Source: Euglena gracilis
Taxonomy: Eukaryota
Length of the DNA stretch: 64,000 bases
Direction: 5' to 3'
Assembly: GCA_039621445.1 (NCBI GenBank)
Contig: CP154954.1
Coordinates: forward strand, 37,743,703-37,807,702
Shown: one piece after another, positions 9,610-52,206 of the stretch
Layout of the letters: every line of letters starts with the position of its first letter
Position numbering within the stretch: position 1 is the stretch's first letter
Notes under the pieces: model-generated
Seen by the model: the letters and a program-made list of their open reading frames with translations, nothing else
Told to the model about the DNA's origin: nothing
The model's database searches: none
Position numbers and translations under genes: made by a program

Positions 9610-9769
9610 GAACGCGTGGGAAACCCATGTTGATTTCTCTTCTTTTTATCATTGATTCTTATCATTCTTTCTTTCCGCAGACTTTTTAGCAAATCATACT
9701 CAAGCGGTTACCCTTACCAACTCAAAACCAACAACCAACCATCCCACCGTACCGACCCTGGGCGGCATC

Positions 9770-18443: not shown

Positions 18444-20427
18444 AAACCCTTTTTGTAAAGGAAGCAACTGTATCAGCGCTGATGGCTTTGTACGGGGGTT
18501 TTAACCAACAGGGGACCCCAGGTTTCGCAAAGACACGTGTTTCTGCCACATACGACATCATCAAACATTGAGGACTTGCAACCAATCTCTTCGACTTGTG
18601 AAACTCCTGGCCTTTACGCTCGATTTTGATGTAGGGAACCCCACCCAACACACTGGTGGTTCTTTGGACCTGTGCCAAATCAGACGATCGATATAAACAG
18701 AGCATTCTGCAGCAAAATTGAGTTCTGTACGTAATGTACAAATATCAGTGGGCAGGGGGGACTGTGCCAGCCCCAGGAGGATTGGGAGAGGATCCCAAAA
18801 AAGAACCATATTTCTCCAGAATTTGGTTCCAAAGCCTTTTGTTAGGCGCTAGCATGGAGTGGAACATCAGGCCACCAGATCCAGGGATTAAAGGCATAGC
18901 ACTGTACGCATTACGGGCCTGTGCCCTTGAAAATTAAAAAAGTTGAATTAACGCGTCAACCTCGTGGCAACCGTTTTGATAACGCCTTATACTGGGTTTT
19001 CTTCCCAGGACATCGTTAATGGTTTTATTTTGTAAAATGTGTCACTTCCAAAATTTGCCTGAGCAAATCATGCAAAGAAGGGGCCACTGGGGTGGCATTT
19101 TTTCTTCCCTGCAATTGGTAAACATACCCTTGTAGGGGACTATTTTCAGGCAGGGGGTCCCTGGTAGTTTCATTTTGGTTAACTGGGGGCACCAGGTGGC
19201 TGAATCCCAGTGTGGGGTGACCATGAAAACTTTTTTCTGTGGAACAGTTTTCATTCTGGGCAGGAATTTCTGAATTATTGACCCGGGGTTGAACGGATTG
19301 TCCAGGGGACATTGTAGTGCATCCACTGCTGATGCCCCCAGTAGGGTCACCTGGCAACAAAATCGGGCAGTTGTTTGTTCCTTGGTCAGGCAAATAAATA
19401 TGTTTTCAAAGCTATGAACTGTTTGAAATGCTGGTTCAGCCATTGAAAAAGTTGGGGGTCCAGTGAGTAATCCCCCCTGTCCATTTCCCATCTCTTTACG
19501 GGGTCTGCAAGGCATTCCTTTGAAGGCACCCACTTGACTTGGAAGTTTTTTTTTTTCGTGCTCCATACACCATTTACCAAACGGTCTTAGCATTGTGTTG
19601 AAAAGGTCCTTTTTTCCGCACCATTCTGTCAGGAACCGTTTCTCCAGGTTTGCTTAGGCTTTTTACTGTGCTTATTGCTGTACTTAGTTCTTTGTTGTGT
19701 GCAGTGAGCACTTTTCCCTCCCCAAATTTTGCACAACATTTCCTGTACGGATGTCTAATCCGCCTCGTGCGTGTGTGCTGCTGTCTGAGTGTAACTCCCT
19801 GGTAGCATTTTTGGGGAATGGTCTTCCCCCCCATTGTCCAGTAGAATTTTGATTTACTTTAGTTGGGTTTTTATTTCTGGTGAAATGTGAGGTTCGGAGA
19901 CCCAGGGGGGCTGTGAAGTGTTTTGCCAGAAAATTGGCCTGGTCATCCGTAAAAGCCCTGTAAAAGGGCAGGGCCATTAGGTTGGACCTGATTCGTCCCA
20001 AAATGGCAGCCAGCTGCCTTTTTGACATGAAGTCCCTTTTACATTTTTGCCCAGTTCCTTTTTGATGGTCTTGACTTTTTGGGGGGCATTTGTAACTTTC
20101 CATCTTGGAAGTTTAGCTGAAACCCCAGGTGGTGCACAATTTGTGTGGGTTCCAGGGTCGACTTTTTTGCATTTATTTTGAAACCTGATTTTAATAAATC
20201 TCTGACCACTGTGTTCAGGTGGGTTTGCAGGGTGTTTCTGGTGGGGGCCACCACTAAAATGTCGTCCAGGAAATGAATACCTGGATGCCCCTTTTTCTCC
20301 ACAACTTTTCGAAAGTTTTGACGACCACCATGAAAATTTGGAGCATTATGTTCAGGCCAAAGCAGCCTGCTTGTAACTCCCATGTTTGCCCCCTACCATA
20401 TGCCTCAAAAATGGCCTTAGGGCCTGG
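18444..20427 (-). mobile_element. DIRS-type tyrosine-recombinase retrotransposon fragment (RT C-half, RNase H, MTase, N-part of YR), decayed
   Basis: GCFGLN...FLDDILVV...GFKINAKKSTLEPTQIVHHLGFQLN (DIRS-like RT); LHSDSS and WVPSKECLADP (RH); LFA...VTPHWDSATWCPQL (MT); KYGSFWDP...LYRSSDLA...SADTVASFTKR (YR). RT-RH-MT-YR order is typical of DIRS. Confidence 0.82.
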
Positions 20428-20740
20428 AGTGTACGTCTGATTCCCAAATACCCTTTCCCCATTACCAAAAAGCCTTCGCTTTCACCTTGGCCCACCTACT
20501 TGGGAACTGATTCCTTTTCCCCCTTCCCAAGAAGCAAAACACAGAGCAGCAATGCAGGGAGGACGGACTGGATATCCAAGTCCGGTCCGAAGAAAAAGTA
20601 AGGACAAAGGAGAAAACAGAATAGAATAAATAATACCACCTGTGGAGAGAGAAGAGGCACCCATTAGGAAATCCTAATAGGATCTGCTTCCATCCTAACT
20701 TCCTCAAATGAAGGTGGCAAAAGCATACGCCTGGTACACA
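20428..20740 (-). repeat. 3' LTR of B1, with PPT at 20741-20750
   Basis: Similar to 39181-39498. Termini TGTGTACC/GACGTACACT on the minus strand, with GGGAGGGGGA adjacent. Confidence 0.9.
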
Positions 20741-21549
20741 TCCCCCTCCCAAGGCTATGTCCGAGTTACCCTTTGGACCAGGCATTCTGGCCACAGGGAT
20801 TTCGGACACAGACCTGGTATGTGGGAGGTGCACCCTGGCGCATCCACAGGGGCCCTTTCCGTCGCACAGGGGTCCACTCAAGTGGGGGGGGGCGGAAAGG
20901 AGGGGGACCCAAAAAGACCAAAATGCACAAAATGGTTTCACCTATTCTGCGGTGGCTTATGGCTGTATAGTATATTATAGCCCACTGGGGAAAATGGGGC
21001 TGGCAGGTTTCCCTGCCAATCAAACCCATCCACCCAGTTTGGGTGCGCCAAAGGCACTTGGGGTTGGGTCCATGGGCATTCCAGGAAAACCCATGGGGAG
21101 GGTGTGGAAGGAGGGGCCCTCTGACCAGTCAAACCTGGGCAGGGCGCATGGCCAGTCAAATCTGACCACGCAAAAGGAAATCCTACTCTACAAAACCAAC
21201 TGCCGGCGACAGCATTTGCCCGGGGGGGGAAATAGAGAGGAGTGGGGGGTTGGCTTAGGCCAAAAAGGTTGTGCTGTCTGGCAGCATTATGGCGTCAAAC
21301 GGTCGAAAAGAAAATTTGAAAGAAAAGAAGCCGTCGGCCCTGTGCGCTGCCTGTCGCACGCCCGCCAGAGGGGAGAGGGGGGAGGGGTGTGCATGCATGC
21401 GCACGGAATCCTGCACATGGCAGCATCCCGGTGGGAACTTACTAGCGGCGAATAACGCAAAGGGTCTTAGAAGGGGTTGTTCGGGCGAATACCCAAACAG
21501 GGTGTCAGGCAAATACCTGACGAGGTTTCTAAAAGACGCCGCATTGGCG

Positions 21550-23032
21550 CTAACAGCCGCCGCACCTGCCTTTATCCGCTGGGCGTTCGCGCACCTCACG
21601 CCAGTAGGCGTGTTGAGCGTCCCCTAATGAGTCCTCAACCAACTCCAGTTGGCGTGGGGACCGCTGCGGAGCTGATTCAGTCCGGATGGTATTTTGATCC
21701 GGAGCGTTGATATCAAAGGATAGGGTCCCCCAGTACTTGATCCAACTGTCCGGCAACTTCTCCCTGGTACGGTCAGCTTGATGCTGAAGGTACCGCTGGA
21801 GCTGTTCCCAGAAAATTCTGGGCAGCATCACCAGCCAGATGATGTAATTCACCCGGGGGTTATTCGCAGGCACCTGCGGGGACATCCCCGGGGTCTGCTT
21901 GAAGTTGACCTCATACATCCTTGGGAATTGGGAAAGGGGAATTGGGAATCAGACGTACACTAAAGCACCACCGAAATGTGGCGCTGGAGGTCAGACTGGC
22001 CTAAAGGCCCTACGACAATGCACGACTTTTCGGCCGTTGCATCGTCCGGGTACGGCCAGAGCAGACCGAAAGGTAAGGCTCGTCGCCGACAGGCCCAATC
22101 TTCCGCCGGATCGACGGATGAGGAGCTTGATGAACCTGCTTCACCTCCTGTGTCTGCGGATGCACAGCTTCTGGACTCAGGATATCCTGACCAGACTAGG
22201 CACCGTTGAAGAGAGGACGAAGAAAATGGCTGCTATTAGGCACCAGAAAGGGTCACTAAATCGACGAATTCAGCCCGTCTTCGTCCGAGGAGAACCTTTC
22301 CACTATGTCCCGGAACATACCTGGACAGCTTGGAACTGGTGCTCACCCAGAGTACTGGCACAGTACTTTGGTGAGGACTGTGTGTTGGGTTTCCAGCACG
22401 GCACGTCCTTTGCCTGGACGTGCACCGTGTGCCACCATGTGCGGCACAACCAACCGCTTGTGCAAGCGGCCGGTGCAATCCACGACGTTCCATCACAGGA
22501 CATATGTTGCGAACTGCGTGGCGCTCGTATGTTGCCAGTGCCTGAACGCCTGGAAGCAAAGCTTGAACTACTCCTACAGTGAGAATGCTCACGACATGGA
22601 TATCCCTGCCTTGCGCATCAACTGTGTAGGGGCCAAGTTCCTGCAGACTGCAGATGGAGCAGTCACGATCATTGTCCCCCAGCACTGGGAGACACTGGAG
22701 AAGTGGAAGAAGGAGTACAAGCAGGTGGAAGGCCGCCTGAAGCACTCCGACTTCCGAAAGGTAGAAAGCCACCGCCACACGGGAATGGCCCGTGAGTTCC
22801 AGATCGACGCTGGGGCAATGCGCGTCGCCTTCGAGGAGCATGCCAGGGTAAGAATGCCTTATCTCTGGACTGATGGCGACTGGGAGACACAGGTTTACCC
22901 ACTGTTCTCCAAGCGTGAGCATGGCGGATACACCTTGCCACTGTGGCCTCCTGAAGAACACAATTTGGTGGACTTCAGAGGTTGGTTGGCGGCTGTATTA
23001 CGGCCCCATACCGCAAGAGCTCGGACAGCGAG
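21550..23032. pseudogene. C-terminal part of the B1 extra ORF (21962-23032 inverted to +, 21550-21920 on -)
   Basis: WTCTVCHH, VCCQCLNAW and YRHTGMAR-like blocks match 24556-25353 and 14048-14641. Confidence 0.75.
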
Positions 23033-23527
23033 GTACTTTCCCCCCGGGGCAAATGCTGTCGCCGGCAGTTGGTTTTGTAGAGTAGGATTTCCTTTTGCGT
23101 GGTCAGGTTTGACTGGCCATGCGCCCTGCCCAGGTTTGACTGGTCAGAGGCCCCCTCCTTCCACACCCTCCCCATGGGTTTTCCTGGAATGCCCATGGAC
23201 CCAACCCCAAGTACCTTGGGCACACCCAAACTGGGTGGATGGGTTTGCTTGGCAAGGAAACCTGCCAGCCCCAATTTCCCCAGTGGGCTATAATATACTA
23301 TATACCCATAAGCCACCGCAGAATAGGTGAAACCATTTTGCGCGTTTTGGGCTTTTTGGGTCCCCTCCTTTCCTCCCCCACTTTTTTTGAGTGGACCCCT
23401 GTGCGACGGAAAGGGCCCCTATGGATGCGCCAGGGTGCACCTCCCACATACCAGGTCTGTGTCCGAAATCCCTGTGGCCAGAATGCCTGGTCCAAAGGGG
23501 AAACCGGGCATAGCCCTGGGAGGGGGA

Positions 23528-23793
23528 TGTGTACCAGGTGTATGCTTCTGTCCCTTTCCGTTGAGGAAGTTAGGATGGAAGCAGATCCTATTAGGATTTC
23601 CTAATGGGTGCCTCTTCTCTCTCCACAGGTGGTATTCTTTTATATTCTGTTTGTCTTTCCTTTTCTCCGGACCGGACTTGGTTATCCAGTCCGTCCTCCC
23701 TGCATTGCTCCGTGCTTTGCTTCTTGGGAAGTTGGAAAAGGGTTTTTACTGTTACTCTGATTTTCAGTTCCCAAGTCGGTGCGCCAAGGCGAA
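23528..23793 (+). repeat. Main part of the B2 3' LTR (inverted); the last 41 bp are at 21921-21961
   Basis: Reverse complement of most of 39181-39498, preceded by PPT GGGAGGGGGA. Confidence 0.9.
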
Positions 23794-24120
23794 GAGAGGA
23801 GTGGGGGGTTGGCTTAGGCCAGAAGAGTTGTGCTGTCTGGAGCCTTAAGGCCTCAAACGGCCGAAAAGAAAAGAAAGGGAAAGGAAAAGAGGCCGTCGAC
23901 CCTGTGCGCTGTGTGTCGCTCGCCCGCGAGAGGGGAGAGGGGAGAGGGGTGTGCATGCATGCGCACGGAATCCTGCACATGGCAGCATCCCGGTGGGAAC
24001 TTACTAGCGGCGAACACCGCAAAGGGTCTTCGAAGGGGTTGTTCGGGCGAATACCCAAACAGGGTGTCAGGCGAATACCTGACGAGGGTGCTGAACGCCG
24101 CATTGGCGCTCACAGACACA

Positions 24121-27100
24121 TCACCTGCCTTTATCGGCTGGGCGTTCGCGCACCTCACGCCAGTAGTCGTGTTGGGGGTCCCCTAATGGGTCCTCAACCA
24201 TCTCCAGTTGGCGTGGGGACCGCTGCGGAGCTGATTCAGTCCGGATGGTATTTTGATCCGGAGCGTTGATATCAAAGGATAGGGTCCCCAAGTACTTGAT
24301 CCAACTGTCCGGCAGCTTCTCACTGGTACGGTCAGCTTGATGCTGAAGGTACCGCTGGAGCTGTTCCCAGAAAATTCTGGGCAGCATCACCGGCCAGATG
24401 ATGTAATTCATCCGAGGGTGATTCGCAGGCACCTGCGGGGGCATCCCCGGGATCTGCTTGAAGCTGATGTCATACATCCGGCTCGCTGTCCGAGCTCTTG
24501 CGGTATGGGGCCGTAATACAGCCGCCAACCAACCTCTGAAGTCCACCAAATGGTGTTATTCAGGAGGCCACAGTGGCAAGGCGTATCCGCCATGCTGACG
24601 CTTGGAGAACAGGGGGTAAACCTGTGTCTCCCAGTCGCCATCAGTCCAGAGGTAAGGCATCCTTACCTTGGTGCGCATTGCCCCAGCGTCGATCTGGAAC
24701 TCACGGGCCATTCCCGTGTGGCGGTAGCTTTCTACCTTCCGGAAGTCGGAGTGCTTCAGGCGGCATTCCACCTGCTTGTACTCCTTCTTCCACTTCTCCA
24801 GTGTCTCCCAGTGGTGGGGGACAACGGTGGTGACTGCTCCATCAGCAGTCTGCACGAACTTGGCTCCTACACAGTTGATGCACAAGGCAGGGATATCCCT
24901 GTTGTGAGCATTCTCACTGTAGGAGTAGTTCAAGCTGTGCTTCCAGGCGTTCAGGCACTCGCCACATACGAGCGCCACACAGTTCGGCACATATGCCCTG
25001 TGATGGAACCACGAGGATTGCACCTGCCGCTTGCACACATGCACAAGCGGTTGGTTGTGCCGCACATGGTGGCACACGGTGCACGTCCAGGCAAAGGACG
25101 TGCCGTGCTGGAAATCCAACACGCAGTCCTCGCCAAAGTACTGTGCCAGTACTCTGGGTGAGCGCCTGTTCCAGAATGTCCAGTTATGTTCCAGGACATA
25201 GTGGAAAGGTTCTCCGCGGACGAAGAGGGGCTGAATCCATCGATTCAGTGACCCTGTCTGGTGCCTAATAGCAGCCAGTTTCTTCGTCCTCTCTTCCAAG
25301 GTGCCTAGTCTGGTCAGGATATCCTGGGTCCAGAGCTGGGCATCCGCAGACACAGGAGGTGAAGCAGGTTCATCCTGCTCCTCATCCGTCGATCCGGCGG
25401 AAGATTGGGCCTGTCGGCGACGAGCCTTAACTTTCGGTTTGCTCTGGCCGTACCCGGACGATGCAACGGCCTAATAGTCGTGCATTGTCGTAGGGCCTTT
25501 CGGCTGTCCGCCAGTCTGACCTCCAGCGCCACCTTTCGGTGGTGGTTTCCCATCACCGCCTTTGGCAGGGGGCTTACAGGGTGCAGCCTCCTTTCGGCTT
25601 CGCACTCCCGGAATCAGGAGGCGACGCCTGCGGCTTACTCCTGGTATCAGGAGCCGATGGTGCCGGAGTAGACGTTTGCCGTCTGGGCGAAGCGGGCATA
25701 CTGACCGCTGGGTCCCGCATGACGCTCCGAGGGGTTACCACCCGTTCCTGGGGTTGTTCAGGCGGCCGTCGCCGAACAGGTTCATTCTGTCCGACGAGGC
25801 GTGGCACTGTGGTCGTCACCGGAATCGGTGCTTCCACAGGCGCTGGCGCTCCCAGAAACTCTGCCATTGTCCTCGGGACGGCAGGGAACCTGCGCGGTGT
25901 CGGTGGTCGTGGGGGTATCTCGTCCACTTCCGTTTCGACATCCGGTCTAGGAGGTTGATCCTCCACAACCGTTGGCGCAGGTGCTACGGGAGGTTGATCC
26001 TCCGGTGTAGCCTGTGCGACAGATGGCTCTGTCGGCTGGGGTTCATCCCCTGAAGATGGTTGCACTGCTGCCGGAGATGGGGGTGTGGGGACACCGACAT
26101 CTGGTGTCTCCAAGCCCTCGGAGGCGGAGCTTGACGCTACGCCTCCACCTCGTGGCAATAGGGCAGCAGCCACGGCAGTAATGCCAGTGACCACGGCGCC
26201 GAGCACACGGCCTCCTAATGAGGTGCGTGCTGCGGGGCTGGTAGATTCTTCGAGGATATCCTCGACGACCATACCAGTTACCGCGGCTGGAGGCTCAGCC
26301 GTTGGAACAGGCGTAGCAGCCACAGGTATATCCCCTGCGGGTGCTCCGTCTGGCCTAGGCTGTGCCAGAGTAGGCAGAGCAGCGTAGAGGATATCCTCCA
26401 CGTTCTCACCTACCTCACCTACTCAGCATGTTCCTGGTCTCCACCTACCGGTGGACGGACGGAAGCCGCCGCGGGAGCCGTGGAAACCGATCGTTCCCCT
26501 GCCGCTCGCGGGGCAGAGACGAAGGATACAGCCGTTCCTGTCGGTGACGGCGGCACTGCCTCCAGAATGGTGACGGAGGGGCTGCGGTCGCGTTCCTCCC
26601 GCCGCGGAATCGCGGTTGTGGAAGCGACTGACGCCTCACGTCTCCTTCGCGCCAGAGGTTCATCCTCTGGGGCGATGAATGTGCGCAGATCCTCGGGCGA
26701 CCGGGGATCGTCGGGGTGCCATCGGCATCCCTGGGCATCAGCCAGCCTGTAAAAGGCCAGTGTACTGCTACTGGCGCTGTTGGGCCAGGGTGGCGGCCAT
26801 GATGGCTGCACCCAGGCGTTGGCAGGACTGTTCGGGTCCAGGAAGCCGCGGTAACGCGTGTCTTCCCAGACGTCGAAAAAGCCCTCCTCGAACTCCTGAA
26901 CGCATGCCATAACCAGCATACGCTGGTCGAGGATGGCCTTCGGGTGACACATCAGCGTGAGGAATACCTCCCGGTCGAGGGTACCGCCAAACTGTCGCCG
27001 CAAATGTTCCTCCGGGCTGATATCAGCCAGGTGCCAGTTGGGGCGCAGGTGGCCGAGAATCCGACGACGAGGACCCTCGATGGCGTCACCGTAATCCGGT

Positions 27101-29607
27101 GGCAGGCTTTCCATACCAGGCCTATCGTCCTGGAGGTCACGGAGATCTTTATATACACCTCCATGACGTAGGTGGTCCAGGCTCGCCACCAGAACTGCTG
27201 CAGCATAATAATACGCTGCTTGTGGACGCGGCGACTTTTGCCTTGGACATCCGGGGCGTCGCAGCACACAGGCATAAGCACGCGGCGTCCCATCTCCAGG
27301 CCCGGGTTATCCCGAGGCGGTGGAGGACTTCCGCGTACGCCGAATCCCCAGAAGTCGACAGGAAATTCCTGGCGGCAGTACTTACAACAGAGGTCATACC
27401 TCTGCGGGTAAGCCAGGGAAACACGCTTAACGCGGAAGGTGGCTCACCAGCCACACCTGGAGGTTGTTGCACCACAACACCTCGATCAGGCGTTCGATGT
27501 CGGGGTGTAGTGGGTAGAATTACCACTGCACGCCGAGGGGTCCGACTGTATGAATGCCGTCTAAGATTGCTTTCAGCCTTCGGGCCAACACACGCTGGTC
27601 CCGAAAACCCAACTGGTGCAGGTAAACGCGACCAGTCGAGTCGCTGAAGAGTCCCCAGTTCTGGCAGGGGTATCCCAGCCAAAACCAGAGCTCCCAGAAA
27701 CCCGGCTGGGCATCCAGCAAGGGTCTGCCACCTTCACCTTCGAAGGCGTACAGATCTATTCCGTAATGGAATAGTCTGACTCGGTTCTCGGTGTGGCGTA
27801 ATACCACATCGATGACTGCTTGTGGAGGAGTGACGGGGCGGTTTCCTGCAACATGGTAATCATGCTGCATTCGCCAGCCTTCGTCCTCCAGCTCCTCCTT
27901 GAACCTGAACATATGCTCAAAGTCCGAGAGGACTTCTGCTGGTTCTTCTTCCTCCTCCCGTGCTGATCCCTTACCTTTACCCTCACCCTTCCCTTTGCCG
28001 GCCACGCCTTTGCCTTCTCCCTTGCCTTTGCCCTCGGCCTTGCCTGTGTCCTCTCCCGTCTGGCGAATACCAGAGGGTGGGGCGCTCGGCGCCGCAGGAG
28101 TCGGTTCGGTTCCTTCCCATTCCATCTCTGGGGATGGACCTGGCCGCTCCGCTGCACGTCGCGGTGATGGCGTGGCTGGGCGCTTGCTAGGAGCCTGGCG
28201 TGGGCTTGGCTTCGACGCAGGGGGTCGCGGCTCCTTCCATGCCGGAGGGATCGGCGGTGGCATAGCGGCAACAGGACGGCTCATCGCCACCTGTGCCTCT
28301 GCCGGTGGTCGTCCAGCCGGGGTATCCTGGCTGGCATCCACCTGCATCGCTACACCGCCTTCCGCGTCCCGTGGGCTGGGTCGCCTGGGCTGTGGGGTAA
28401 GGTTCTCCGTAGTCCTGTCGCGCTTCAGGGTGGCAGGTAATACTGCCACACCTGCCGGGGGCTCACCGGGTAATACCGGGGTTGCCATCCGCAGCTGCGG
28501 CTGGTACGGATGGTATGGGGTGCACCCACGGCCCTGAAGGGCAGCCAGAGAGGCGTAATACCTCGTCCGGTGCTCTTCAGACGCGAATACTGGCTCCTGC
28601 AGGAAATGCCGAGCAAGCTCATGCTGCTCGGTTCCCGGAGGTGCCATGTGATAGTAGGGAGTCTCCTGCCGACGGAGGATATCCCCAGTCTGGACAGGGG
28701 CTGCACTGGGCGGTCGGGCTGCCTCACGGTAGGGAGGTTCATCCTCCACCACTATGGGCACTGCCTGCCTCCGTGGCTCAACGCCAGGGACAGGGGCGAC
28801 CGGTGATGCCTGAGGCATCCAGTGCATGAACATGTGTTGGACGTATGCCTCAGGGGGCACGTCCGACTGTCCGGCTGGGAGCACGCGTGCGCCGCGCGGG
28901 TAATCCGCGTGCGTCGCCTCCCGCGAGACAAATTGCTCCGCTGGCGGCTCGCGCGGTGGCATTCGCTGCGGCGAGGGCGGGCGAGCAAAAATTCTCGTCA
29001 TCCCAGGTGGGACACGCACAGCCTCACCTATCGGTGGGGGTGTGTGCTCACGCATATGCACGGTGTGGGATCCCACCGGCGTCTGCGTTTGCAGCATGGG
29101 CGGCACATACACGCCCAGATCCATCATGATCTCGCCAGGCTCAAATCCGGAATCGGATGCCGACGAGAAATACCGTCTCCCTGTCATCAGGGCCTGACCA
29201 CAGGGACACCACTGAGCCACAGGGGTGTTGGCTACCACCAACAACTGAGCACAGTGTGCATCCCAAAGGGCTTGCACAAAGGGCTCCGTTGGGGGGGGGT
29301 GTGCGCACATACGCATCGCCCGCTCCAACGTCTCCGTAGTGCGGAAGATCATCTCTCCCGCATACGGGGGCCGGCGCAGTCTGCGCTGCGCTGGTGGCCG
29401 AGGTGCCGGCTGCAGGACGGCAGATGGATCTGGTACCGCGTATGCGGACCGGCTGCTGGTACCCGCGGCGAATACCGGGGCTGAAACCCTCTCAGCATGT
29501 GGGGCACCCGGAATCGGGGCCTCAGCATACTGAGGGTACTGTGGGTATGGCGCGCCAGAAGGCTGCGGCCATGGTGGACCTGGTCCAGGTCCGCGCCCGG
29601 GCAGCAT
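24121..29607 (-). pseudogene. Extra 3' ORF of B2 (unknown function)
   Basis: ORFs 27520-29607 (695 aa), 26419-27267, 25574-26401, 24556-25353 and 24121-24549, homologous to A 9770-15166. Confidence 0.78.
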
Positions 29608-29806
29608 GATGCTACCCGAACGACGACGACAACTAAGGGTAACCTTGTTGTCAGTCGCTTTGAGTGCTGGTGCACTGAAAAAGCAAGGCTTCTATCATAA
29701 TCAAAAACTCCGTGATAAAGATAGAGAAAGAAGGAAGTGCAGGGGGGGGGGGTATAAACGTGAAACATTCACATAAAACACACGCATTCTCCAAAACGAA
29801 ATCGTT

Positions 29807-32800
29807 TCAAAAAGTGTTTATGTTTATGTCTATGTTATTGCGCTTGTTCCACAGCTTCCAATCCTGCTGGATGTATCCAACAAAACTGGATGCTGGCTCC
29901 CAAGTGTCCTCCTCTGGCCCATACCCTTTCCAGCGAACTTTCCAGTAGTGCACACCCCTGTCGACCTTGTGGTCAATTATCTTATCGACCACAAAGTCGT
30001 CCGTTTCAGGTAATCTGCAACGGGGCTTGAAATATAGGCAGGGGATAGCTTTTCCGTCTGGGGGGCTTGGGTACGGTTTGAAGTCGTCCATATGGACGTC
30101 CTCAATCCCGTTGGGCAAGGCAACTTTATATCGCCCGCTACTATCTAACCTCTCCAAAATTTCGCATGGGCCGAGCCAAAGAGGATCTAGCTTGGAAGAT
30201 TGCATGCGGGTGCGGTTATTCCGTACCCACACGGGGTCACCTGGACTATACACAGGTGTGTTGAAGTTCTGTAAAAACGATTTCAGTTTGTTGGAATGAA
30301 TTTCTGTGATACGTGACTGGACTGCAGAGCGGAGTGATTCCACTTCTGCGAACCACGTTTCACAGCTGACGCTACTTCGGGCGGGTCTCTCCGAGGGGAT
30401 ATCCCCTATGGCCGGAGGATCCCGTCCGAAAACAATTTTGTACGGTGAGTGTGGTAATACCAACCCTGGCAAGGTATTGATGTAAAATAAACACCAATGA
30501 AGAACGGATAACCAATTCTTACCCGAGTCAGCCAGTGAAAGGCGAAGCATATTGACAACAGATTTCACGGCTGCCTCGGCTCTACCATTGTCTTTCGGGC
30601 GGTATATAATGGAAAAATGCTGCAAAATGCCGAGTAAACCGCACAGAGTTGTGAAAAACCACGAAGAGACAAAGTGATCTTGATCACTCACGATTTCGTT
30701 CGGTAAACCCATTAAGCGGTTACATTTCTCCAGGAATATGGATGCCAAAATTTGGGCTGTCAACCCTGCTTTCCGGCATGGAATGGCTACTTTGGTACCC
30801 ACTCAACCGACAGACGGCATCAAAAACGTAATCTTAAATTTTGTCGTCTGATCCTTTGCAAGGTTCAAGTTCGAGAAAGTCCATGCAGAGGGACGTAAAA
30901 ATGTCTGGTGGTACGGGGAAAAAGTCCATCGTACCAGGGGGGGTACCTCTGCACGGTTTCACAGCCTGACAAATTTGGCACCGTTGCGAAATTCGCAAAA
31001 AGCGCGAATATAAATCTTATTCACTCAGGGTTGTGCAACATCTGCGACCCACTAGTGAAAGAAGTTTGGGGCCCCAGGGTGACCATGGTTGTGATAGCTC
31101 AAAATCACATCATCAACCAGGTCTTGTGGTATACAATATTTATAACCAGAATCATTCCGGAAATAAGTCGCAATGGTGATAGAGAGTAATTCTCTATGGA
31201 TTCACCATTACGAAGTCTATTCACAATCGTACTATATATAGGGTCACGCGAATGATCCCATTCGCGGAAAAATAGGGGGGTAGGAGTTTCCGTACGCGTA
31301 ATGCGACGGGGTCCGGTAGTGCGTCCACGCCGGCGACTTCCACGCAATGGTGAGATGGCGATACTGCGATACACCCGGGAAACCGTTAGTGAATCGAGCA
31401 TGTTGTCCGCAGCGTCGGATCGACGTGTGAACTGGTCAGCCTCATGGCTGCCATGAAAAGTCGCATCACCCTCATCCGGGTTCCCAGGATAATACCAGGG
31501 GGCTCGGCTGAGAGGATCCGCAACTTTTTGCGTGTGACCTGGGGTATAGATAACCACCAGGTTAAACTGGCTCAAGAACTTATGCCATAGGCATCTGCTG
31601 CCCACTGATGACATGGCCTTGTTTAGGTCCTCGGTGTACCAGTGTTGAAGGCTCTCATGATCCGTCAACACCAGTATCTGGACCAGGCTGCTGGCTATCC
31701 AGCTGCGGAATTTCTGGAGAATAAGCACAATAGCATATGTCTCCTTTTTGCGAATGCTCCATTTAACCTGTCCTTTCCTGTTGTCGCCCTGTAGCTTCCT
31801 GCTGAAGAAAGCCACAGGTCGGAGTTCATTCGCCGCATTATGCTGGCTAAGAACTCCGCCAACAGCGTAATCGCTGCTGTCGACCTCCAGGACATACGGT
31901 TTATATGGATCCGCGATATCAAGAACCACGTTCCCTAGGAGCAAGTCCTTGATTTCATTCAAGGCCTCGCGCATTTCGTCATACCAAATGACTTTTGCGT
32001 TATCGGGTGTCCGATTTTTGAGTTGTCGGGTTAGGGGTACCGCGATTTTCGCGAAATGGTTCAAGTAAATCGCGTAATATTGGGCTAATCCCAAAAATCC
32101 CTTTAAATGCGTTAAGGTCTTAATGACCTCAGGAGTCCATTTCTTAATGGCCTCCATCTTACTGGGTGCGGCTTTACGCTGCCCGTTGCTCAAGATGTGT
32201 CCGCAAAACTAAATAATTTTGCGAAATAGGTGCATTTTGGAACCCTTCACAAAAAGGACATGCTTTTGGAATGCGGTTAATACCGCTCGCACATCGCGAT
32301 AATGCGGGTCGAGGATATCCTCGCCCGATTTCGCGGATGGCGGTTGGGTTCCCACCAGTACATCATCGATGTACGTACACCAGAGCAAACGGTAAATCGC
32401 GCAAAAGCCACTGGATCATGCGTTGAAGCATGGCTGGGCCATTCTTAACACCCATGGGGAGAACCGTCCATTGGTACACACCCTTGGATGTCACGAATGC
32501 CGTGTACGGTTGCGAATCAGGATGCAAATGCACCTGATGGAAACCGTCTTCCAGATCAAAGATTGACCACAACTGGTTTTCCGATTGCTTGGTGATCAAA
32601 TCCTCGATCAGCGGTAACGGGAAGGGGTCATCCTTCGTTTGGGAGTTCAGGTACCGGTAATCCAGCACTAGTCTCCAATTCTTCTGACCAGACTGGTCAG
32701 CGGGTTTGGGCACCACAAAAGCTTGCGATGTTCACTCGCTCTTGGAAGGGATAATCCACTTCCGCTGGATGAGCTCCTCAATCATCTCGTTGAGAGCCTG

Positions 32801-34936
32801 TTCGCGTTCACCCGAACAACGGAAGATTTTCCGGTGCATGGGCTTAGCGCCATCCTTGAGCTCGATTTTACAAACACCGAACGCACCGCGAATCGCGGGG
32901 TCGATGTCGCAGGCGTAAACTGGATTATCCAGTACACTATGAAATTCGCGAGTAATTCGCGAACAATAGTCAGCAGACTTGGGGTGTTGGTCCGCACTCT
33001 CAAGGACCGCAGAAATCTGCGTTGAGGGTGTGGCATCCCCATTAGTACCAAGGTATCTTGGCACACGCACATCGGATATTCCGTATGTGTCGAAGAAACA
33101 AACGCGAAAAATGATTTCTTTAACCGGTGGTAATAATATACCACAAAAATCCTCAAATAGTGGTACATCAGCGGGTAAATCCCACCAATGGAAACACACA
33201 TAGGATAATTGGTGAAACCAATCCGCATTCGGATTGACGGGTATGAGGAGAGCTCCTCGCGCTTCATCGCGGAGGATTTTCTCCACCACATCCGGGATAA
33301 GTTTTTGGGGAGGGTGCATCCATAGCACCGTACCACTCCAAAATTTAAGAAATGCGTTGGTATGTCGCGACCAATATCGCGACAAGCGCGCATGCGCTTT
33401 TGATGAAAACGCATCAATTTCCAACGACAAATCGAAGGAATCAGCCAACACCGCGATTTTGGAGAACCATTCCTCCAAAATACGGTATTGACCAAAATTG
33501 AATGCGTTCCATACACGCACCGCGTATGTGTCGACCTGATTCGCGGGTTGAAGAGCGGTAACGCAATTCAGGAATCCGCAAACATAGGTCAAGGGTGTGT
33601 CATCCACACTCCCTAGGGGCAGTCCCGAGGGTTGATGGGTTGGATGGGTGCATACCCAGTCCATATCATGCGCAATGGAGGTGGGGGAGGTGTGTGACAC
33701 AGATCTCGCGGTCCCAAACAACAAGGCAATACCTCGTTGTTGGAGCATTTGGTGTACGGTCGCGCATTGCGAACCGCAACCAAGTGTATGGTTACGCGAA
33801 ATCGGGATTAGTGTTGGTATTTGGACTAGACATCCACAATCGAAATCTGGCTGGGCGGAAATTCTCCTACAGTGCACACACTGGAAGGAAGTGTCGGAGT
33901 AGTGGTCCTGGTCGCGCATGTTGGTCTGGCGAGGGTGTGTGTAAAAGTTGGAATGCGCTTTTGAAGCTGCTGGGCGGTGTACAGATGTATCTGAAAGCGA
34001 TACATCTGGTGGAAAACGGGGTATTGGTGCAGCTGGGCGACTACTCGGCACCGTGACCACTTCAGGCCTTTGGGCTTTCGTCTTGTAACCCAGTGGAACG
34101 AGGGGGGTACCTCTACTCGCTTGCCCTGCCTCATGGGGAACGGAAGTTGGTGTGTCAACGGGCAGGGGGTGAACTTTCTCGGTACTCCCGGTGTAGAAAA
34201 CGTTGGTTGGTGTGGTTGGTAACGGGGTAAAAGTTTTTGAAAACGGTGTGGAAAAATTGGTGGTCGTCGCGGTTGACGCCACAGGTGAGGAAGGTTTGGG
34301 AGGCAATGAAGAGAATGGTGATGTGCGCAAACCGTGGGAGTGGCAACCTACTACCAGCCGGTGCTGACGTAAAAAGAGGTATCCCAGAAATACGTCAGAA
34401 CCCTGGATTACGGATTCGTATCCCCAGGTATCCAGAAAAGTTTGCGGTTGGGGGGGGTGTGAGTGGTGCTTGGGGATGAGGGGTAGGACAATGTCCAAAA
34501 AGCATCCCAAGTCACCACCGCACATGGGGGTGCTGTCAGCCGTCGTAATTTTGATCGGCTTCTTGGCTGTCACCAAGAGGGGGGTTGGTATCAACCCGAA
34601 CCGAAAAAGTAGTGCAATGCGACAACCAGTGTCAATGAGAATTTTGACTTTTGCACAAAAATTTTAGATTTTGATTTCCGCTTGGACCAAAAGTTCCATG
34701 GGGGGTAAGCAAAGTGAAGGGTCTGGCGAAAATACGTTTTCTTGCCAGCTTTCCCATGAACCCTTTCCTACTTTGCACAACATTCCGAGCGGAAAGTTGG
34801 AGTGGGGGGTGGGGGACCCGAAAATTTTCCGGGTACCGACCAGAAAGGCAGATGGGCAGGGAGGGTAGGGTTGATCAGGTCCTACCTCCATCTGTTCATC
34901 AGCCCAGAGGTCCGTGCCCTCGGACCTCGGGCTCCC
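29807..34936 (-). pseudogene. pol: pol of B2 (PR, Cys/His spacer, MTase-like domain, RT, RH, IN, chromodomain)
   Basis: KILIDTGC near 34620-34650; 620-aa ORF 32732-34594; RT 32363-32716; RH 31105-32193; IN and chromodomain 29807-30802 with IVSDQD, NGRAE and [17 protein letters not shown]. Confidence 0.93.
33090..33530 (-). other. Dam/DIRS-like DNA N6-adenine methyltransferase domain within Pol (uninterrupted in B2)
   Basis: IDAFSSKAHARLSRYWS..NAFLKFWSGTVLWMHPPQKLIPDVVEKILRDEARGALLIPVNPNADWFHQL follows the DIRS MT pattern as I recall it: DLFA-x-N-x-DAF-xxW-xPP-xLI-xVLxK-xPxW-xWF. Confidence 0.78.
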
Positions 34937-37900
34937 CTACTCCAGGTCCGAACCGGCCGAATAGCCGGCTATGGGCCTTTTAGAGGTATAAACAGATTTC
35001 AACGTGCGCACCGCCTTGCGGGCCTCGTCGAAATCGGTATCCGTGGTCTCATCCCCCTCCCTGCCCGAAGCCGGGGTGTCATCTCCAAACAAGATATCCT
35101 GAAACCGACTTTATGGCGGTTGGAGGAGTGACCCTTGTCACCGCGATTCATACCGCGATGACGTTGGCCAGGGCGGGGAGAACGAGAACGCGGACATTTG
35201 GACGAGTGGTGATCACTCGATCCACACAGCGAACACCCAGATTTGTGTCGCGATTCTGGGTAACAGGGGGATCGGTTTCCCGACTTCCCGTCAAACCGTC
35301 GTGGTGACCGGATATCCCGTCGACCATGACCGGTGTATCGGGGTTTTCCCGATGAGGATCGCGAAGAAGATGTTCCGCTTCGCGAACGCGATCGCGATGT
35401 CTCGCGATGAGAATCACGCTTCTTGGCCGGTGCACCGGGTGACCTACCCCGAAGGGTACCGTGTTTCCGCTCATCGCGGAACGGGATCCGGGGGCTAATG
35501 CCACCGGAACGGGGACCCGATGACCGTGAATTGCCCGATTGGCGTGAAAACGCCGAGGAACCCAAACCCCGTGATGAGGTCGAGCCTCGCGGACTCTGGA
35601 TACGTTTACGCGCTTCAGGATTAGGACATTCTCGAGACATATGTCCCGATTTGTTGCAAAAAAAGGACACTTTGTCCGTGGCTTAGTCCGAAGAACGCGG
35701 GTATCGCGTCTTCGATCCCGTGTTTGGTGAAGTGGGTGAAACCGGTGATTTTTGCAATGCGTTCACCGAACCAGCCGGTAATCCAGCGGTTGGGTGTGCG
35801 TTATACGCGGATTGAATTTGACCAAGAAGCTGTGATAGCTTCAATTGCTTGGAAACGTAGTTCCAGCGTTGGTCAAGAGTCATTGGATGACTCGCCAACT
35901 CCTCACGGTGGATATCCTTAATGAGGCTAGGCGTGAAATGCATGAGAACAACATCAAACTGTTTGCGCATTTGCTTTTCACTGAGTTCATCCACTTCAGC
36001 GGCAAGTCCCAACCATTTGGCATACCAAAGGACAATGGACTTCCACTTGCGATTGGGTGGGGCGCATTGCCGCCACTTGGTCTCTAGGGTAATCCTAGCG
36101 ACCAAACTTGAACTGGTGGAAGCGTATTGCCCCACCAGGTCATCAAAGGAAACGCGGTAGCGAAACACGAGTTGTCGCGCGCGTTCCTTCTCATCCCAAT
36201 CAGTGGATCGGAATGCCCGATCCACGCAAAGTGAGATTACCAGGTTGGATGAGCGAATTTCCGCGTTTCTGGATAAGCCAAAACTCGGAAATTTGCCCAT
36301 GGGTACCACAACCGTGTTGCCGGATAACCCTGCACCGGTTGCACCCACCACCACACCAACCAAGGTGACATCACCTTTGCAAATTCTCTCAAATGCTGTA
36401 AAAGCATTAATGGGACAACTCCAATTATTGGATAAGTCTCACGGGAAACTTGTCCGAGATGTTACCGGAATTTCCGAAAGGATTCCGCACTTGGATGACT
36501 TTTCCCGTTACCGCAAGCGTATTCGCGCTTTGGAGGATGAAGTGGACCGTATTTGCGGCCAACTCCAACTCGTTGAGCATTTGGAGCAAAGTGTGCATGA
36601 CTTGTCTGTTGGTTTGGATAATGTGTCCAACCACAGCGGGTTTCACACCGCAATTCGGCAGAATGCATTGCCGAAGATGCGCCAAATGTTCCAGAGTCGC
36701 GTTTTCATAACCCGGCTCTGGGTGCACATGCACCACCACCACCCGTGTCCCGAGTGTCACAATCCGCGATTCCGCGAATTGTGCCACCATTGGCCTTGTC
36801 CACAACCCAAACCCAGTTTCCGGATGAATCTCCCATTCCGGGAACCGAATTTGCGGAAAACACGGCGATTCCGCCAAGTCTCCATCAAGAAATCCATCGT
36901 TCCATGCTTGTGCGTGGAATGAGCCAAACCCGTACACCGGGAGTGGGTCATATGTTGCATGCGCGACATACCCCCACACCGGAGAGTCCCCCTATTACGG
37001 GTGACCAACAGGGTTTGCGACCGTATTTCCGGTACCAGGATTCACCTTCACCAGAAATTTCACGATTCCGACAAGAATCCGGAAAGGATACGCTTGGTGC
37101 TCGAGCGCACCCGGGCCTGAATCCACGGAATACCGCCGAGGGCCAACGGGTTTTTCAGAAAGACTTCAAGGGCACCATCGCAATCGCGAACAAGGTGAAA
37201 CCCCAATGGGACGGTGATCCAACCACATGGAGACAGTTTTTCCGTGACTGGGAGTACTATTGGGCATTGAAGGGGCCAACCCAGGACACAAACCCGGAGG
37301 TGATCAAGATGGAATTCATCGATTGCCTCCCAAGGGATGAAAAGGAGGCTGTTGCAGAAATCTTGCAAGGTTTCCTGATTGTTAGTGAGCTTTTTGTCAT
37401 AAAATGTCTTGAAATCAGGGTTCTCGGTAATCCGAGAACTGGAAACTGCAGGCAGAGACTGCATTTCCGTTACTTTGGTAGACACCGATGCATACCGGGT
37501 CTGGAGTTCCCCAATAGCAGTCTGTATACCGCTAATGTCCGGAACTCGGTGGGTAAGTGCGGAATAGCTTTGTTGCAAACCCGCAATGGCCGAGTTAATC
37601 CCGCCAATTTCGGATTGCAACTGCAACTGCAGGGAATCCTGCCGTTGTGCGATTTCCGCCACTTTCGCGTTCGGATTGGATAATCCAACCTGATTCGCAT
37701 CACAATAGCAGGTTTTCTGCTCCAAACGGGAAAGTCGCTCCTCCAACTGCCGCACATACGTGTGGGGAGCAAAATTCTCGTTGGCTTGTGACTGAAATTG
37801 CCGAAACTTTTCCGTTTCATCGAACAACTGCATAATGCGGTGTTGCGATTCATGGAAACTTGCGGACAATGTGGTGAAATGGTCCATAGACACAAATCCA

Positions 37901-38901
37901 CCACTGCTGGATGTTGCAGACGAGGAATCTCGTGCATGCAACTGTTGTTGCAAATGCAACAACGCGGATGAACAGGACTCCATTTGTCCCGATAACCGTT
38001 GTAGTGAGTCATGCAAGTGCAGAAACTTGCAGTCATTCCGCGTTTCCGCTTCATGCATGCATTCACTAATTTGCCGGAAGTGTTGCGGGAGTTGTTGGCA
38101 CATTTTGTCAAAGGTTACCCGAAAGTTTGCAAGGTCAATACACGCACTTTCGAAATTCCTCTGGCAATATTTGCCAACTTCCTGCAAGCAACTCCAGCAG
38201 AATTCCAGCTTGGTGAAGACATGTTTTTGGTTTTCCTCATCGAACTGGAGCACTTTGTTCAGTGTGGTTGCGGAATCTGCAACGCATTGTTGCACATGGT
38301 TGAACTGCCTCACAAGAGGGTGATCCCCTGGAAGCCGAGCCACGATATCCTGCACATCCTCAGCAGTGAGGAGCTCACCAGTGCCCTTCCCATAGCCAAC
38401 CATGGGTTGGGACGTACCGGAGAATTCCGGTACCACTAGGCGAGTCTCCGGTGGCCAAGGTAGTGCGGGATAACACCCAAGATCGGGTGGTGGTTGCAAA
38501 GCTCTGTAAGGGCTTGCCGGTGGAAGAACGGGTGGTGGTTGAAAGAAACACGGGGTTTCCAGTCCACCATCACCAGAAAAACCCGGTGGCGGAATCACCA
38601 CGGGTCTCTCAGGTGTGCGCAGCTGCACCATTGCCGCAGACAGAGGCGAATACCTCCGTTGTGGCAAGGTGAGTGCGGAAGAGGCCGTATTAGTCTCTGA
38701 AGCCAAAGATGTATCGCCGACCACTGTCAATGATGACAAACGTTGCAATCTTGACAATTGAGCCAATTGTGCCTCATCGGCGTGGGAACTGGAAGCACTT
38801 TCACATAAAAGCTTCCAATCCCCAGTATCTTGGTCAATGTCTTGCAATGATGCCTCGAATATGGCTTAGTTGAATTGATGGTTGGGGCCTGTGCTTTGCA
38901 T
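34937..38901 (-). pseudogene. gag: gag of B2 (segment ~36198-37345 inverted to +)
   Basis: MQST start at 38901. ORFs 37060-38847 (-), 36203-36922 and 36745-37345 (+), 35683-36197 and 34999-35670 (-). Knuckles xFFCNKSGHMSREC and CSLCGSSDHHSSKC. Confidence 0.87.
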
Positions 38902-39170
38902 CTTTCTGGTCACAAAAGCAGCAAAAACACACAAAACTAAGCAGTTGTGCTGGCACCAGAGGGGCTGTAACGGGTAATACCGTACAGAGCCTCCCGGAGC
39001 CTGCTCGTCTGCTTAGACGTTGACTAGAAGCCGGGTGTTGACACTGCGACCGTGTAATAACGGTGCAGGGGCTCTCCGCTGCCAGTCAGCGTAGGATCGA
39101 ACCAATCTGCTACCAAGTGTAATACTTGATAGCGTTCCTGTTTGTGAAGTGTGCATAGGATAATAGCCAA

Positions 39171-39180
39171 TCTGCTACCA
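39171..39180 (-). promoter_or_regulatory. PBS of B2 (TGGTAGCAGA); second copy at 39106-39115
   Basis: Abuts the 5' LTR end. Confidence 0.85.
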
Positions 39181-39498
39181 AGTGTACGTCTGATTCCGAA
39201 TTCCCCTTTCCCAATTCCCAAAAGCCTTCGCTTTCGCCTTTGCGCACCTACTTGGGAACTGAAAATCAGAGTAACAGTAAAAACCCTTTTCCCACTTCCC
39301 AAGAAGCAAAGCACGGAGCAATGCAGGGAGGACGGACTGGATAACCAAGTCCGGTCCGGAGAAAACGAAAGACAAACAGAATATAAAAGAATACCACCTA
39401 TAGAGAGAGAAGGGGCACCCATTAGGAAATCCTAATAGGATCTGCTTCCATCCTAACTTCCTCAACGGAAGGAGACAGAAGCATACGCCTGGTACACA
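39181..39498 (-). repeat. 5' LTR of B2
   Basis: TGTGTACC...GACGTACACT; matches 23528-23793 plus 21921-21961, and 20428-20740. Confidence 0.92.
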
Positions 39499-40544
39499 GC
39501 TTTCCAATCACTGCCTTTGGCAGGGGGCGTACATGGTGCAGCACCCGGTTTGCCTCCTTTCGGCTTCGCACTCCCGGAAGCAGGAGGCGACGCCTGCGGT
39601 TTACTCCTGGTATCAGGAGCCGGTGCCGGAGTGGACGTTTGCCGTCTGGGCGAAGCGGGCATACTGACCGCTGGCTCGCGCATGACGCTCCGAGGGGCCG
39701 GCACGCGTTCCTGGGGTTGTTCAGCCCGCCGTCGCCGAGGAGGTTCATCCTGTCCGACGAGGCATGGCACTGTGGTCGTCACCGGAATCGGTGCTTCCAC
39801 AGGCGCTGGCACTCCCAGAAACTCTGCTATTGTCCTCGGGACGGCAGGGAGCCTGCGCGGTGTCGGTAGTTGTGGGGGTATATCCTCCACTTCCGTTTCG
39901 ACATCCGGTCTAGGAGGTTGATCCTCCACAACCGCTGGCGCAGGTGCTACGGGAGGTTGATCCTCCGTTGTAGCTGGTGCGACAGATGGCTCTGTCGGCT
40001 GGGGATCATCCCCTGGTGGTGGTAGCACTTCTGCCAGAGTTGGGGGTGCAGGGACACCGACATCTGGTGTCTCCACGACCTCGGCGGCGGAGCCTGATGC
40101 TACGCCTCCACCTCGTGGCGTTAATGCTGCAGCCACGGCAGTAATGCCAGTGACCACGGCTCGGAGTACACGGCCTCCTGTTGAGGTGCGTGCTGCGGGG
40201 CTGCTTGGTTCTTCGAGGATATCCTCGACGACCATACCAGTCACCTCGGCCGGAGGCTCAGCCGTTGGAACGGGCGTAGCAGCCACAGGTATATCCCCTG
40301 CGGGTGCTTCGACTGGCCTAGGCAGTGCCGGAGCAAGCAGAGCAGCGTAGAGGATATCCTCCACGTTCTCACCTTCCTCCTGAGGGAGTTCCTGGTCTCC
40401 ACCTACCGGCGGACAGACGGGAGCCGCCGCGGCGGCCGGGGAAACTGATCGTTCCCCTGCCGCTCGCGGGGCAGAGAGGAAGGAGACAGCTATTCCTGTC
40501 GGAGACGGCAGCCCTGCCTCCAGGATCGTGACGGAGGGGCTGCG
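39499..40544 (-). pseudogene. Middle Pro/Ala/Glu-rich part of the B1 extra ORF
   Basis: ORF 39462-40364 is closely similar to 25574-26401. Confidence 0.8.
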
Positions 40545-52100: not shown

Positions 52101-52206
52101 GGGGCACCCGGAACGGGGCCTCAGCATACTGAGCTTCTGTGGGTATGGCGCGCCAGAAGGCTGCGGCCATGGTGGAACCTGTTCCACGTCCACGCCCAGG
52201 AAGCAT
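49153..52206 (-). pseudogene. N-terminal half of the B1 extra ORF
   Basis: ORFs 51226-52206, 50625-51056, 50104-50403 and 49134-49994 are homologous to B2 26600-29607. Confidence 0.8.

Follow-up and report, generated by a model that had tools for sequence, protein, structure and literature searches.

A Dam-like methyltransferase-fold domain between protease and reverse transcriptase in a Ty3/Gypsy retrotransposon of Euglena gracilis

Introduction

When a retrotransposon encodes, within its Pol polyprotein, a domain resembling a DNA adenine methyltransferase, is that domain a genuine component of the element, and is it likely to transfer methyl groups? The question is raised by a 64,000-nucleotide stretch of DNA from Euglena gracilis (contig CP154954.1, positions 37,743,703 to 37,807,702; referred to throughout as the window and numbered from its first letter), in which a decayed, chromodomain-bearing Ty3/Gypsy element, here called B2, encodes a Dam-like domain (DAM) between a putative protease (PR) and reverse transcriptase (RT). 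An earlier note, made from the sequence, had drawn attention to this arrangement and had proposed that the element packages a DNA adenine methyltransferase with RT and integrase (IN), and may mark its own complementary DNA (cDNA). The analysis reported here shows that the DAM domain is an integral and vertically inherited part of Pol in a Ty3/Gypsy lineage whose domains are arranged gag-PR-(linker)-DAM-RT-RNase H (RNH)-IN-chromodomain. For this lineage, the proposed marking of cDNA is doubtful.

Results and discussion

Organisation of element B2

The features that define B2, together with a second copy in the window, are as follows.

25546–40544, minus strand: element B2, a chromovirus-like Ty3/Gypsy retrotransposon, decayed copy of ~15 kb, bounded by a direct repeat pair
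39501–40544, minus strand: putative 5′ long terminal repeat (LTR), direct repeat of 25546–26586
34999–36438, minus strand: gag region with CCHC zinc knuckle (PF00098, E 2.3e-5)
32732–34663, minus strand: 643-codon stop-to-stop frame holding PR, linker, DAM domain and the N-terminal RT region, terminating in the in-frame stop at 32732–32734
34625–34633, minus strand: aspartic protease active-site motif D-T-G, within ILIDTGC (index 7 of the open reading frame, ORF)
32363–32731, minus strand: N-terminal part of RT (RVT_1, PF00078, E 8.4e-21), followed by a frameshift near YIDD
31105–32208, minus strand: RT-RNase H region (PF17919, RT_RNaseH_2, E 5.2e-24; PF17917, E 1.1e-21)
29807–30802, minus strand: C-terminal part of IN (SH3_Tf2-1, PF24626, E 5.9e-6) and chromodomain (PF00385, ~29885–29995)
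25546–26586, minus strand: putative 3′ LTR, 89.6% identity over 1052 aligned nt with 39501–40544
49153–55427, minus strand: copy B1, ~91% identical to B2, truncated within RT, hence DAM domain absent

Taken together, Pfam matches and motifs give the order gag-PR-DAM-RT-RNH-IN-chromo on the minus strand, which bears out the earlier view that the domain separates PR from RT in a Ty3/Gypsy element bearing a chromodomain. As regards the assignment to Ty3/Gypsy, matches to RVT_1, RT_RNaseH_2 and the integrase SH3_Tf2-1 domain follow one another in that order, and the chromodomain match (E 1.6e-10, 41.2 bits) exceeds the Pfam cut-off of 25.1 bits. The putative LTRs are ~1.04 kb each, and the inner edge of the lower one is exactly where homology between B1 and B2 starts. 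The D-T-G motif of the putative PR is correctly placed, and the PR segment of B2 was matched upstream of DAM in 24 homologues; no Pfam protease match was obtained for B2 at E<=1, and the aspartyl-protease matches of its homologues are weak.

The uninterrupted frame of ~620 residues that had been described as linking PR to RT is real, and comprises 643 codons, but Pol of B2 as a whole is not intact. In addition to the in-frame stop at 32732–32734 there is a frameshift near YIDD (~32363–32373), as a result of which the YIDD motif falls in another frame, at 32373, and further breaks are present between RNase H and IN. Since the LTRs are ~90% identical, and since Pol contains an in-frame stop and frameshifts, B2 is regarded as a dead insertion. 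Comparison with four public sequencing runs revealed a different letter from that of B2 at position 32732 in nearly all contigs of all four, and a 4-nt difference at position 32371 in many contigs. Because both positions differ in most or all other copies, the stop and the RT frameshift are mostly private to the B2 insertion. No indels or substitutions relative to the run contigs were observed inside 33068–33532, the stretch that encodes the DAM domain, among the matches listed.

Assignment of the domain to the Dam family

The domain and its two principal motifs are located as follows.

33068–33532, minus strand: Dam-like (PF05869-type) methyltransferase-fold domain, 155 aa, ORF residues 378–532, limits set by homologues
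33401–33418, minus strand: motif I-like IDAFSS, Asp kept in 99/105 aligned homologues
33305–33316, minus strand: motif IV equivalent H-P-P-Q, family consensus N-P-P-F

These limits are nearly identical to the 33090–33530 proposed previously, and all of the strings quoted for the domain (IDAFSS, RYWS, NAFLKFW, LWMHPPQKLIPDVVEKIL, LLIPVNPNADWFHQL and LFEDFCGILLPP) are present within it, with LEIDAFSS beginning at 33424 and ILLPP at 33139 on the minus strand. The Phe of the motif I-like stretch is found in 102 of 105 aligned homologues, and this acidic motif (D-A-F-A/S-S) may be the equivalent of motif I, which binds S-adenosylmethionine (SAM).

Dam (PF05869) is the sole Pfam family that matches the domain of B2, with a score of 22.8 bits (E 8.2e-5) for the whole ORF and 26.3 bits (E 6.7e-6; profile positions 22–105 of 169) for the domain alone. 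An exhaustive phmmer search with the B2 domain against 1.84 billion representatives returned 471 relatives at E<=1e-3, of which 91 reached E<=1e-10 and 10 reached E<=1e-30, a result far beyond chance. The homologue set consists of raw metagenomic gene calls; among ten homologues looked up in sequence clusters, the one protein name attached was 'hypothetical protein'. An alignment of the B2 domain with 75 of the shorter relatives (76 members) was examined with Pfam, and 62 of the 76 matched PF05869 at E<=0.01, the best with E 2e-13. Among long homologues, P0029 (29.5 bits), P0070 (31.7), P0018 (31.6), P0019 (37.9), P0026 (39.7) and P0143 (49.2) lie above the curated gathering cut-off of the family, which is 28.1 bits, and homologues reaching the cut-off are tied to B2 at E values down to 1e-44. 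Homology of the B2 domain to the Dam family is thus supported transitively, since its relatives reach the cut-off though B2 itself is sub-threshold. The hidden Markov model (HMM) built for the family scores the B2 domain at 201 bits. Of the other searches conducted, a word-indexed homologue search at near lengths gave 0 matches among 399 candidates, a PDB sequence search with the single domain and with the alignment profile gave nothing relevant, and no lead from the ESM Atlas reached 0.9; one neighbouring cluster there has Dam on 11% of its members.

Predicted structure

AlphaFold2 applied to the 76-member alignment gave a model with a mean pLDDT of 95.7 and a pTM of 0.89. When compared with predicted viral structures (BFVD), the model had 17 matches at E<=1e-3, with E values down to 2.7e-9; the top 13 include ten named phage adenine or DNA methyltransferases, the others being nameless, with TMq values of 0.63–0.74 and 12–24% identity. 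Among solved structures, the best Foldseek match was to PCIF1 (6irw_B; E 7.6e-4, TMq 0.62, probability 1.0), followed by KsgA and DIMT1. VIA-align returned 19 chains at Z>=8, and its PDB neighbours are all SAM-dependent methyltransferases, most of them adenine-N6 enzymes: Z scores were 11.0 for PCIF1, 10.2 for PH1948, 9.1 for METTL5 and KsgA, 8.4 for T4 Dam, 8.3 for M.BseCI and 8.2 for EcoDam. The model therefore has the predicted class-I SAM-methyltransferase (Rossmann-like) fold, resembling that of phage Dam. With profile, model and structural matches in agreement, the identification of the domain as Dam-like, which the earlier note had made by eye, is upheld.

Two alternatives bear on these data. 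The first is that the likeness to methyltransferases is spurious and that the stretch is simply a lineage-specific spacer of Gypsy Pol, as might be argued from the Pfam score of B2, which is under the cut-off, and from the lack of a PDB sequence match. Given that 62 of 76 relatives match Dam, with some above the cut-off, that the D-x-F and N/H-P-P motifs are conserved, and that a confident model yields fold searches dominated by adenine methyltransferases, this is considered extremely improbable.

The second is that the domain acts on RNA, for example by N6-methylation of adenosine in the genomic RNA of the element or near its cap. PCIF1 is an NPPF-type enzyme, the cap-specific adenosine N6-methyltransferase, and as the best solved-structure neighbour (PDB 6irw, 6irx) it aligns with the model over 139 residues with an rmsd of 4.0. 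Together with METTL5 and with KsgA, DIMT1 and Erm (Z 8–9), it is ranked over T4 Dam and EcoDam, and weak PCIF1_WW Pfam matches occur in two of the 76 alignment members. Conversely, the closest predicted structures are those of phage DNA adenine methyltransferases, and Dam is the sole Pfam family recovered. Moreover, sequence searches detected no PF05869 member in the PDB, so the ranking is one among distant folds. Identity to PCIF1, an RNA-acting and much larger protein of 482–494 residues, is 10–14%; the likeness is a resemblance of fold and not membership. The objection from motif IV, set out below, applies equally to an RNA substrate. An RNA-directed activity is accordingly considered quite unlikely.

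Conservation across the lineage

According to the earlier note, the domain occupies an equivalent position in a divergent element of the window, family A, which is ~76% identical to B2 at the DNA level. This is confirmed, with the copy being located as follows.

6103–6574, plus strand: family A copy of the DAM domain, in four in-frame pieces (frameshifts and stops), motif IV H-L-P-Q, each piece matching the family profile with E 4e-7 to 1e-4

Beyond the window, a relative from a JGI metagenome, P0155 (Dam score 19.6 bits), is 75% identical in the DAM domain and 55% over the aligned region, and its open frame runs unbroken from DAM through RT and RNase H into the integrase zinc finger. RT of the B2/A type follows DAM in 21 of the 34 homologues having at least 120 aa there, and PR precedes it in 16 of the 19 having at least 300 aa there; indeed, the PR-DAM-RT order is found in dozens of metagenomic relatives, among which DAM, RVT_1, RNH and IN occur in one protein, and a chromodomain in two. 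The full-length relatives P0152 and P0153 have the order Dam, RVT_1, RNH, IN, Chromo, and P0152 is intact, with RVT_1, RNH, Integrase_H2C2, rve, SH3 and Chromo. In a tree of 111 domains, in which the relatives are all metagenomic proteins, B2 groups with P0155 (SH-aLRT 99), then with P0001 (98), within a 16-row clade (99) that includes P0152, and PR-DAM-RT rows are distributed on all major branches.

Codon comparison of the in-frame pieces shared by family A and B2 gave dN/dS values of 0.11, 0.30 and 0.34 for the DAM pieces, compared with 0.14–0.18 for PR, 0.14 for RT, 0.11 for RNase H and 0.15 for integrase. Since the values for DAM are like those for PR, RT and IN, and those for the PR-DAM linker are far higher (0.74–0.87), the domain was kept, during the divergence of A and B2, by purifying selection as strong as that acting on these enzymes.

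These data also bear on whether the domain could derive from a DIRS or other element, a fragment of which landed in a Gypsy copy by chance, either as a nested insertion or as an assembly chimera. The window is a nest of retroelements with a DIRS-like fragment at 19042–20392, which makes such an event conceivable. Its probability is nevertheless judged to be negligible, given that PR, the domain and the beginning of RT are read in a single frame, that the domain occupies the same place in A, P0155 and 21 of 34 homologues, that its dN/dS resembles the values for the core enzymes, and that the DIRS-like fragment has no significant match to it. Family A, P0155, the homologue architectures, dN/dS and the tree together establish the domain as a feature of the lineage, as had been claimed, and not a chance insertion.

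One further element of the linker is shared within the lineage.

33830–33880, minus strand: conserved C-x2-C-x9-C-x-C island in the PR-DAM linker, common to B2, family A and P0155

The island has the pattern CxxCxRxTxQxxxDCGC, with a counterpart in family A near 5800–5860 (plus strand), and the linker around it is nearly neutral. It occurs in six of the 24 PR-bearing homologues, all of them in the closer clade of B2, and may constitute a small module that binds zinc and accompanies the DAM domain.

Other positions of the domain were observed also. In P0119 the arrangement is Copia-like (integrase, Dam, RVT_2), and in P0143 DAM lies between RNase H and integrase of a Gypsy-like Pol; these positions show that the DAM module has been shuffled repeatedly. 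P0156 and P0158 are proteins of ~1000 residues that combine a DAM relative with a dUTPase domain, encoded on Mb-scale contigs, and some retroelement lineages may thus combine dUTPase with a DAM domain of the His/Cys type.

Motif IV and catalytic potential

The consensus of the family reads D-A-F-A-S ... L-W-I-N-P-P-F ... K-I ... G-I-L-I-V-P-x-W ... W-F. B2 retains the Asp-x-Phe and both prolines, but its motif IV is HPPQ, with HLPQ in family A and HPPL in P0155. Across the alignment the first position of the motif is N in 77, H in 22 and C in 9 of 112 sequences, and the fourth is F in 62 of 112; in the tree set the first position is N in 75, H in 22, C in 9 and another residue in 5 of 111. When traced on the tree, this column requires at least 9–10 changes in which Asn is replaced by His or Cys. 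One 13-row clade is all His save one Cys, and in the 16-row clade of B2 the fourth residue is mostly aliphatic instead of aromatic. The NPPF of the family has thus given way to HPP(Q/L) as motif IV in the sub-lineage comprising B2, A and P0155.

In amino-methyltransferases, the Asn or Asp of motif IV, together with the aromatic residue, positions the target adenine. Because the Asn that binds the amino group and the aromatic residue that stacks on adenine are both gone, the domain of the B2 lineage is unlikely to be a canonical N6-adenine methyltransferase. The caution regarding activity that had been attached to the HPPQ motif was therefore justified, Asn being present at this position in 75 of the 111 related domains.

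Comparison with known elements

The element is not the first of its general kind, such elements having been described for the first time in 2026. A preprint (bioRxiv 10.64898/2026.05.21.726589, May 2026) reports, in the text available, DAM domains in non-DIRS LTR elements, termed 'DAM-LTRs', both with and without chromodomains and including chromovirus-like ones, in Chlorophyta, an ochrophyte, Ichthyosporea, Pyropia and Euglena. The novelty that the earlier note had implied for a DAM-carrying Ty3/Gypsy element, chromovirus-like elements included, does not therefore stand, although the main text of the preprint states no PR-DAM-RT order; it describes DAM between IN and RT in one clade, and a 'conventional' organisation in another. 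Like the DAM-LTRs as described there, B2 is an LTR element of the Ty3/Gypsy type with a DIRS-type DAM in Pol, a chromodomain being present in some clades of the former; DAM and the start of RT share one open frame in B2. The domain likewise corresponds to part only of the prokaryotic enzyme, with a small sheet-plus-helices fold predicted. The Asn-Pro-Pro triplet, conserved in almost all DAMs according to the available text, is replaced in the B2 lineage by His-Pro-Pro, without the aromatic residue. The screen described in that text employed hmmsearch with a cut-off of E 1e-5, which B2 (22.8 bits), P0155 (19.6) and most of the 16-row clade (16.8–24.9) would probably fail. Relative to what the preprint's available text reports, the HPP variant, the recurrent loss of Asn and a large PR-DAM-RT clade scoring mostly 17–25 bits are distinct.

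DIRS1-type tyrosine-recombinase elements are described as carrying a methyltransferase (MT) of the PF05869 type after RT-RNase H (PMC3783388, PMC5890265, in the parts of these articles consulted), and the full-text literature on PF05869 and retrotransposons returned the DIRS context only. The MT of DIRS and the domain of B2 have in common Pfam Dam and a retroelement Pol context. DIRS elements, as portrayed in these sources, have MT after RT-RNase H, possess a tyrosine recombinase and lack both PR and a DDE integrase, whereas in B2 DAM precedes RT in an element with PR, a DDE integrase and a chromodomain. A clear DIRS order was found in none of the 150 nearest homologues; RT-RNH precedes DAM only in P0143, with integrase after it.

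Phage proteins of the PF05869 type, which include N-6-adenine methyltransferases, have a D-x-(F/C)-A motif that is shared with the B2 domain. They provide the closest predicted structures and share the position of (N/D)PP(Y/F), although the catalytic Asn or Asp is His in B2, where the domain is embedded in a polyprotein. Other retroelements carrying a DNA-modification domain are the cytosine methyltransferase retrotransposons SymbioLINE-DNMT, SymbioDIRS-DNMT3 and Gypsy-DNMT3 (PMC5890265, in the part consulted); these, unlike B2, carry C5-cytosine enzymes unrelated to DAM, and no DNMT was seen in a Pfam scan of B2.

Possible function of the domain

The reading that is favoured, with somewhat better than even confidence, is that the domain is a PF05869-type fold module of Gypsy Pol, maintained under selection, which in this lineage is most likely non-canonical or non-catalytic. 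It would then be kept as a non-catalytic or altered module travelling with RT, and might bind SAM or nucleic acid, or interact with an adenine-methylation complex of the host. MT-A70 enzymes have degenerate partners, and are proposed as a parallel to a non-catalytic DAM.

The alternative closest to the original proposal is that the domain is an active DNA N6-adenine methyltransferase which is packaged together with RT and IN and marks the cDNA or RNA:DNA intermediate of the element with N6-methyladenine (6mA), so as to obtain permissive chromatin after integration. Strong purifying selection, retention of the motif I-like Asp and of the Pro-Pro of motif IV, and a fold like that of phage Dam are all in keeping with it; moreover, it is the model proposed in the available text of the preprint, which reports that, in Euglena and two ichthyosporeans, DAM-LTRs have a larger share of 6mA-methylated copies than the remaining LTR elements do (10.64898/2026.05.21.726589). 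On the other hand, neither the Asn nor the aromatic residue of N-P-P-F is present in B2, A or P0155, and eukaryotic DAMs, canonical ones included, are described in the same text as giving no gain in 6mA when expressed in dam-deficient E. coli. With both of these motif IV residues lost, marking of its own cDNA with 6mA becomes less likely for the B2 lineage, and this alternative is regarded as unlikely.

Several points weigh against the favoured reading of a selected, probably non-catalytic module of the PF05869 type. Its non-catalytic character is deduced from two residues, and His can both donate and accept hydrogen bonds, such that residual or altered catalysis could feasibly persist. The B2 domain is under the curated cut-off of Pfam (26.3 versus 28.1 bits), and some of the homologues may be decayed copies, possibly inflating the count of motif changes. 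The dN/dS values derive from a single comparison of two copies that are now pseudogenes, over short pieces (33–80 codons). Finally, the RNA-library contigs described below may come from contaminating DNA.

A wider proposal can be put forward tentatively, with the odds against it: that PR-DAM-RT Gypsy elements constitute a deep and diverse clade mostly missed by the published screen because its members score under the threshold, that Asn has been replaced repeatedly by His or Cys under purifying selection, and that the conserved role of DAM is that of a pseudo-enzyme rather than methyl transfer. If true, this role would consist in binding of SAM, adenine or nucleic acid, or in docking onto the adenine-methylation machinery of the host, and would explain the inactivity in E. 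coli of canonical eukaryotic DAMs recorded in the available text of the preprint (10.64898/2026.05.21.726589). The loss of Asn under selection bears on the question, left open in that text, of whether DAM domains methylate anything, and the NPP, HPP and CPP types represent natural variants for a comparative test of DAM activity. More generally, retrotransposons with their own epigenetic writers and readers show the adaptation of mobile elements to host chromatin.

Copy number and RNA traces

Fourteen DNA runs of one organism each contained 0.42–0.55 of the sampled words, and a run labelled 'leaf litter metagenome' contained 0.20. In one of these data sets, run X1, 59,749 contigs mapped onto 6.7 kb of B2, indicating that the B2 family is present at very high copy number. 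In RNA or presumed-RNA runs (n=3), contigs cover all 30 bins of the B2 stretch; a metatranscriptome contig of 981 nt (X17 record 30) is gap-free over 32792–33772, and two RNA-library contigs of 903 nt span 33126–34025. The presence of B2-family contigs in RNA libraries is compatible with transcription.

Other features of the window

The whole 64-kb window appears to be made up of nested retroelements, without host genes. The DIRS-like fragment referred to above is located as follows.

19042–20392, minus strand: retroelement fragment with the C-terminal part of RT (RVT_1, E 1.3e-9), then a frame holding VTPHWDSATWCPQL

No recombinase or Dam match was obtained for this fragment with Pfam. A by-eye match between it and the DAM domain had been proposed, but as a DAM relative the fragment (19042–19653, minus strand) is unsupported, with 5.1 bits and E 0.73 against the family HMM, an hhalign probability of 5.2% and 0 Pfam families. 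The short stretch that does align is an equivalent strand-helix motif, and a distant kinship of the fragment with the DAM domain is possible.

Inverted and direct copies of a ~2.5-kb repeat lie just outside the lower LTR of B2 (20400–25550), 21319–21835 corresponding to 23881–24394, and 24482–25548 to 23032–21962. Within the element, the chromodomain and the 3′ LTR are separated by an additional long, Pro-rich frame of 723 codons (27520–29691, minus strand). Its counterparts are found at 9656–12466 (plus strand) in family A and at 49134–52290 (minus strand) in B1. The frame, which has a conserved C-terminal block (…FWELWFWLG.PCQN.G…), is kept between families A and B; no Pfam match was obtained for it. 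Upstream of gag, a coiled-coil-like frame of 601 codons (37060–38865, minus strand) has a counterpart in family A at 1506–2879 (plus strand), Pfam matches being weak. Parts of this upstream region are in inverted orientation relative to family A (36198–38298 against 1357–3048), which suggests a rearrangement or nested copies near the coiled-coil frame.

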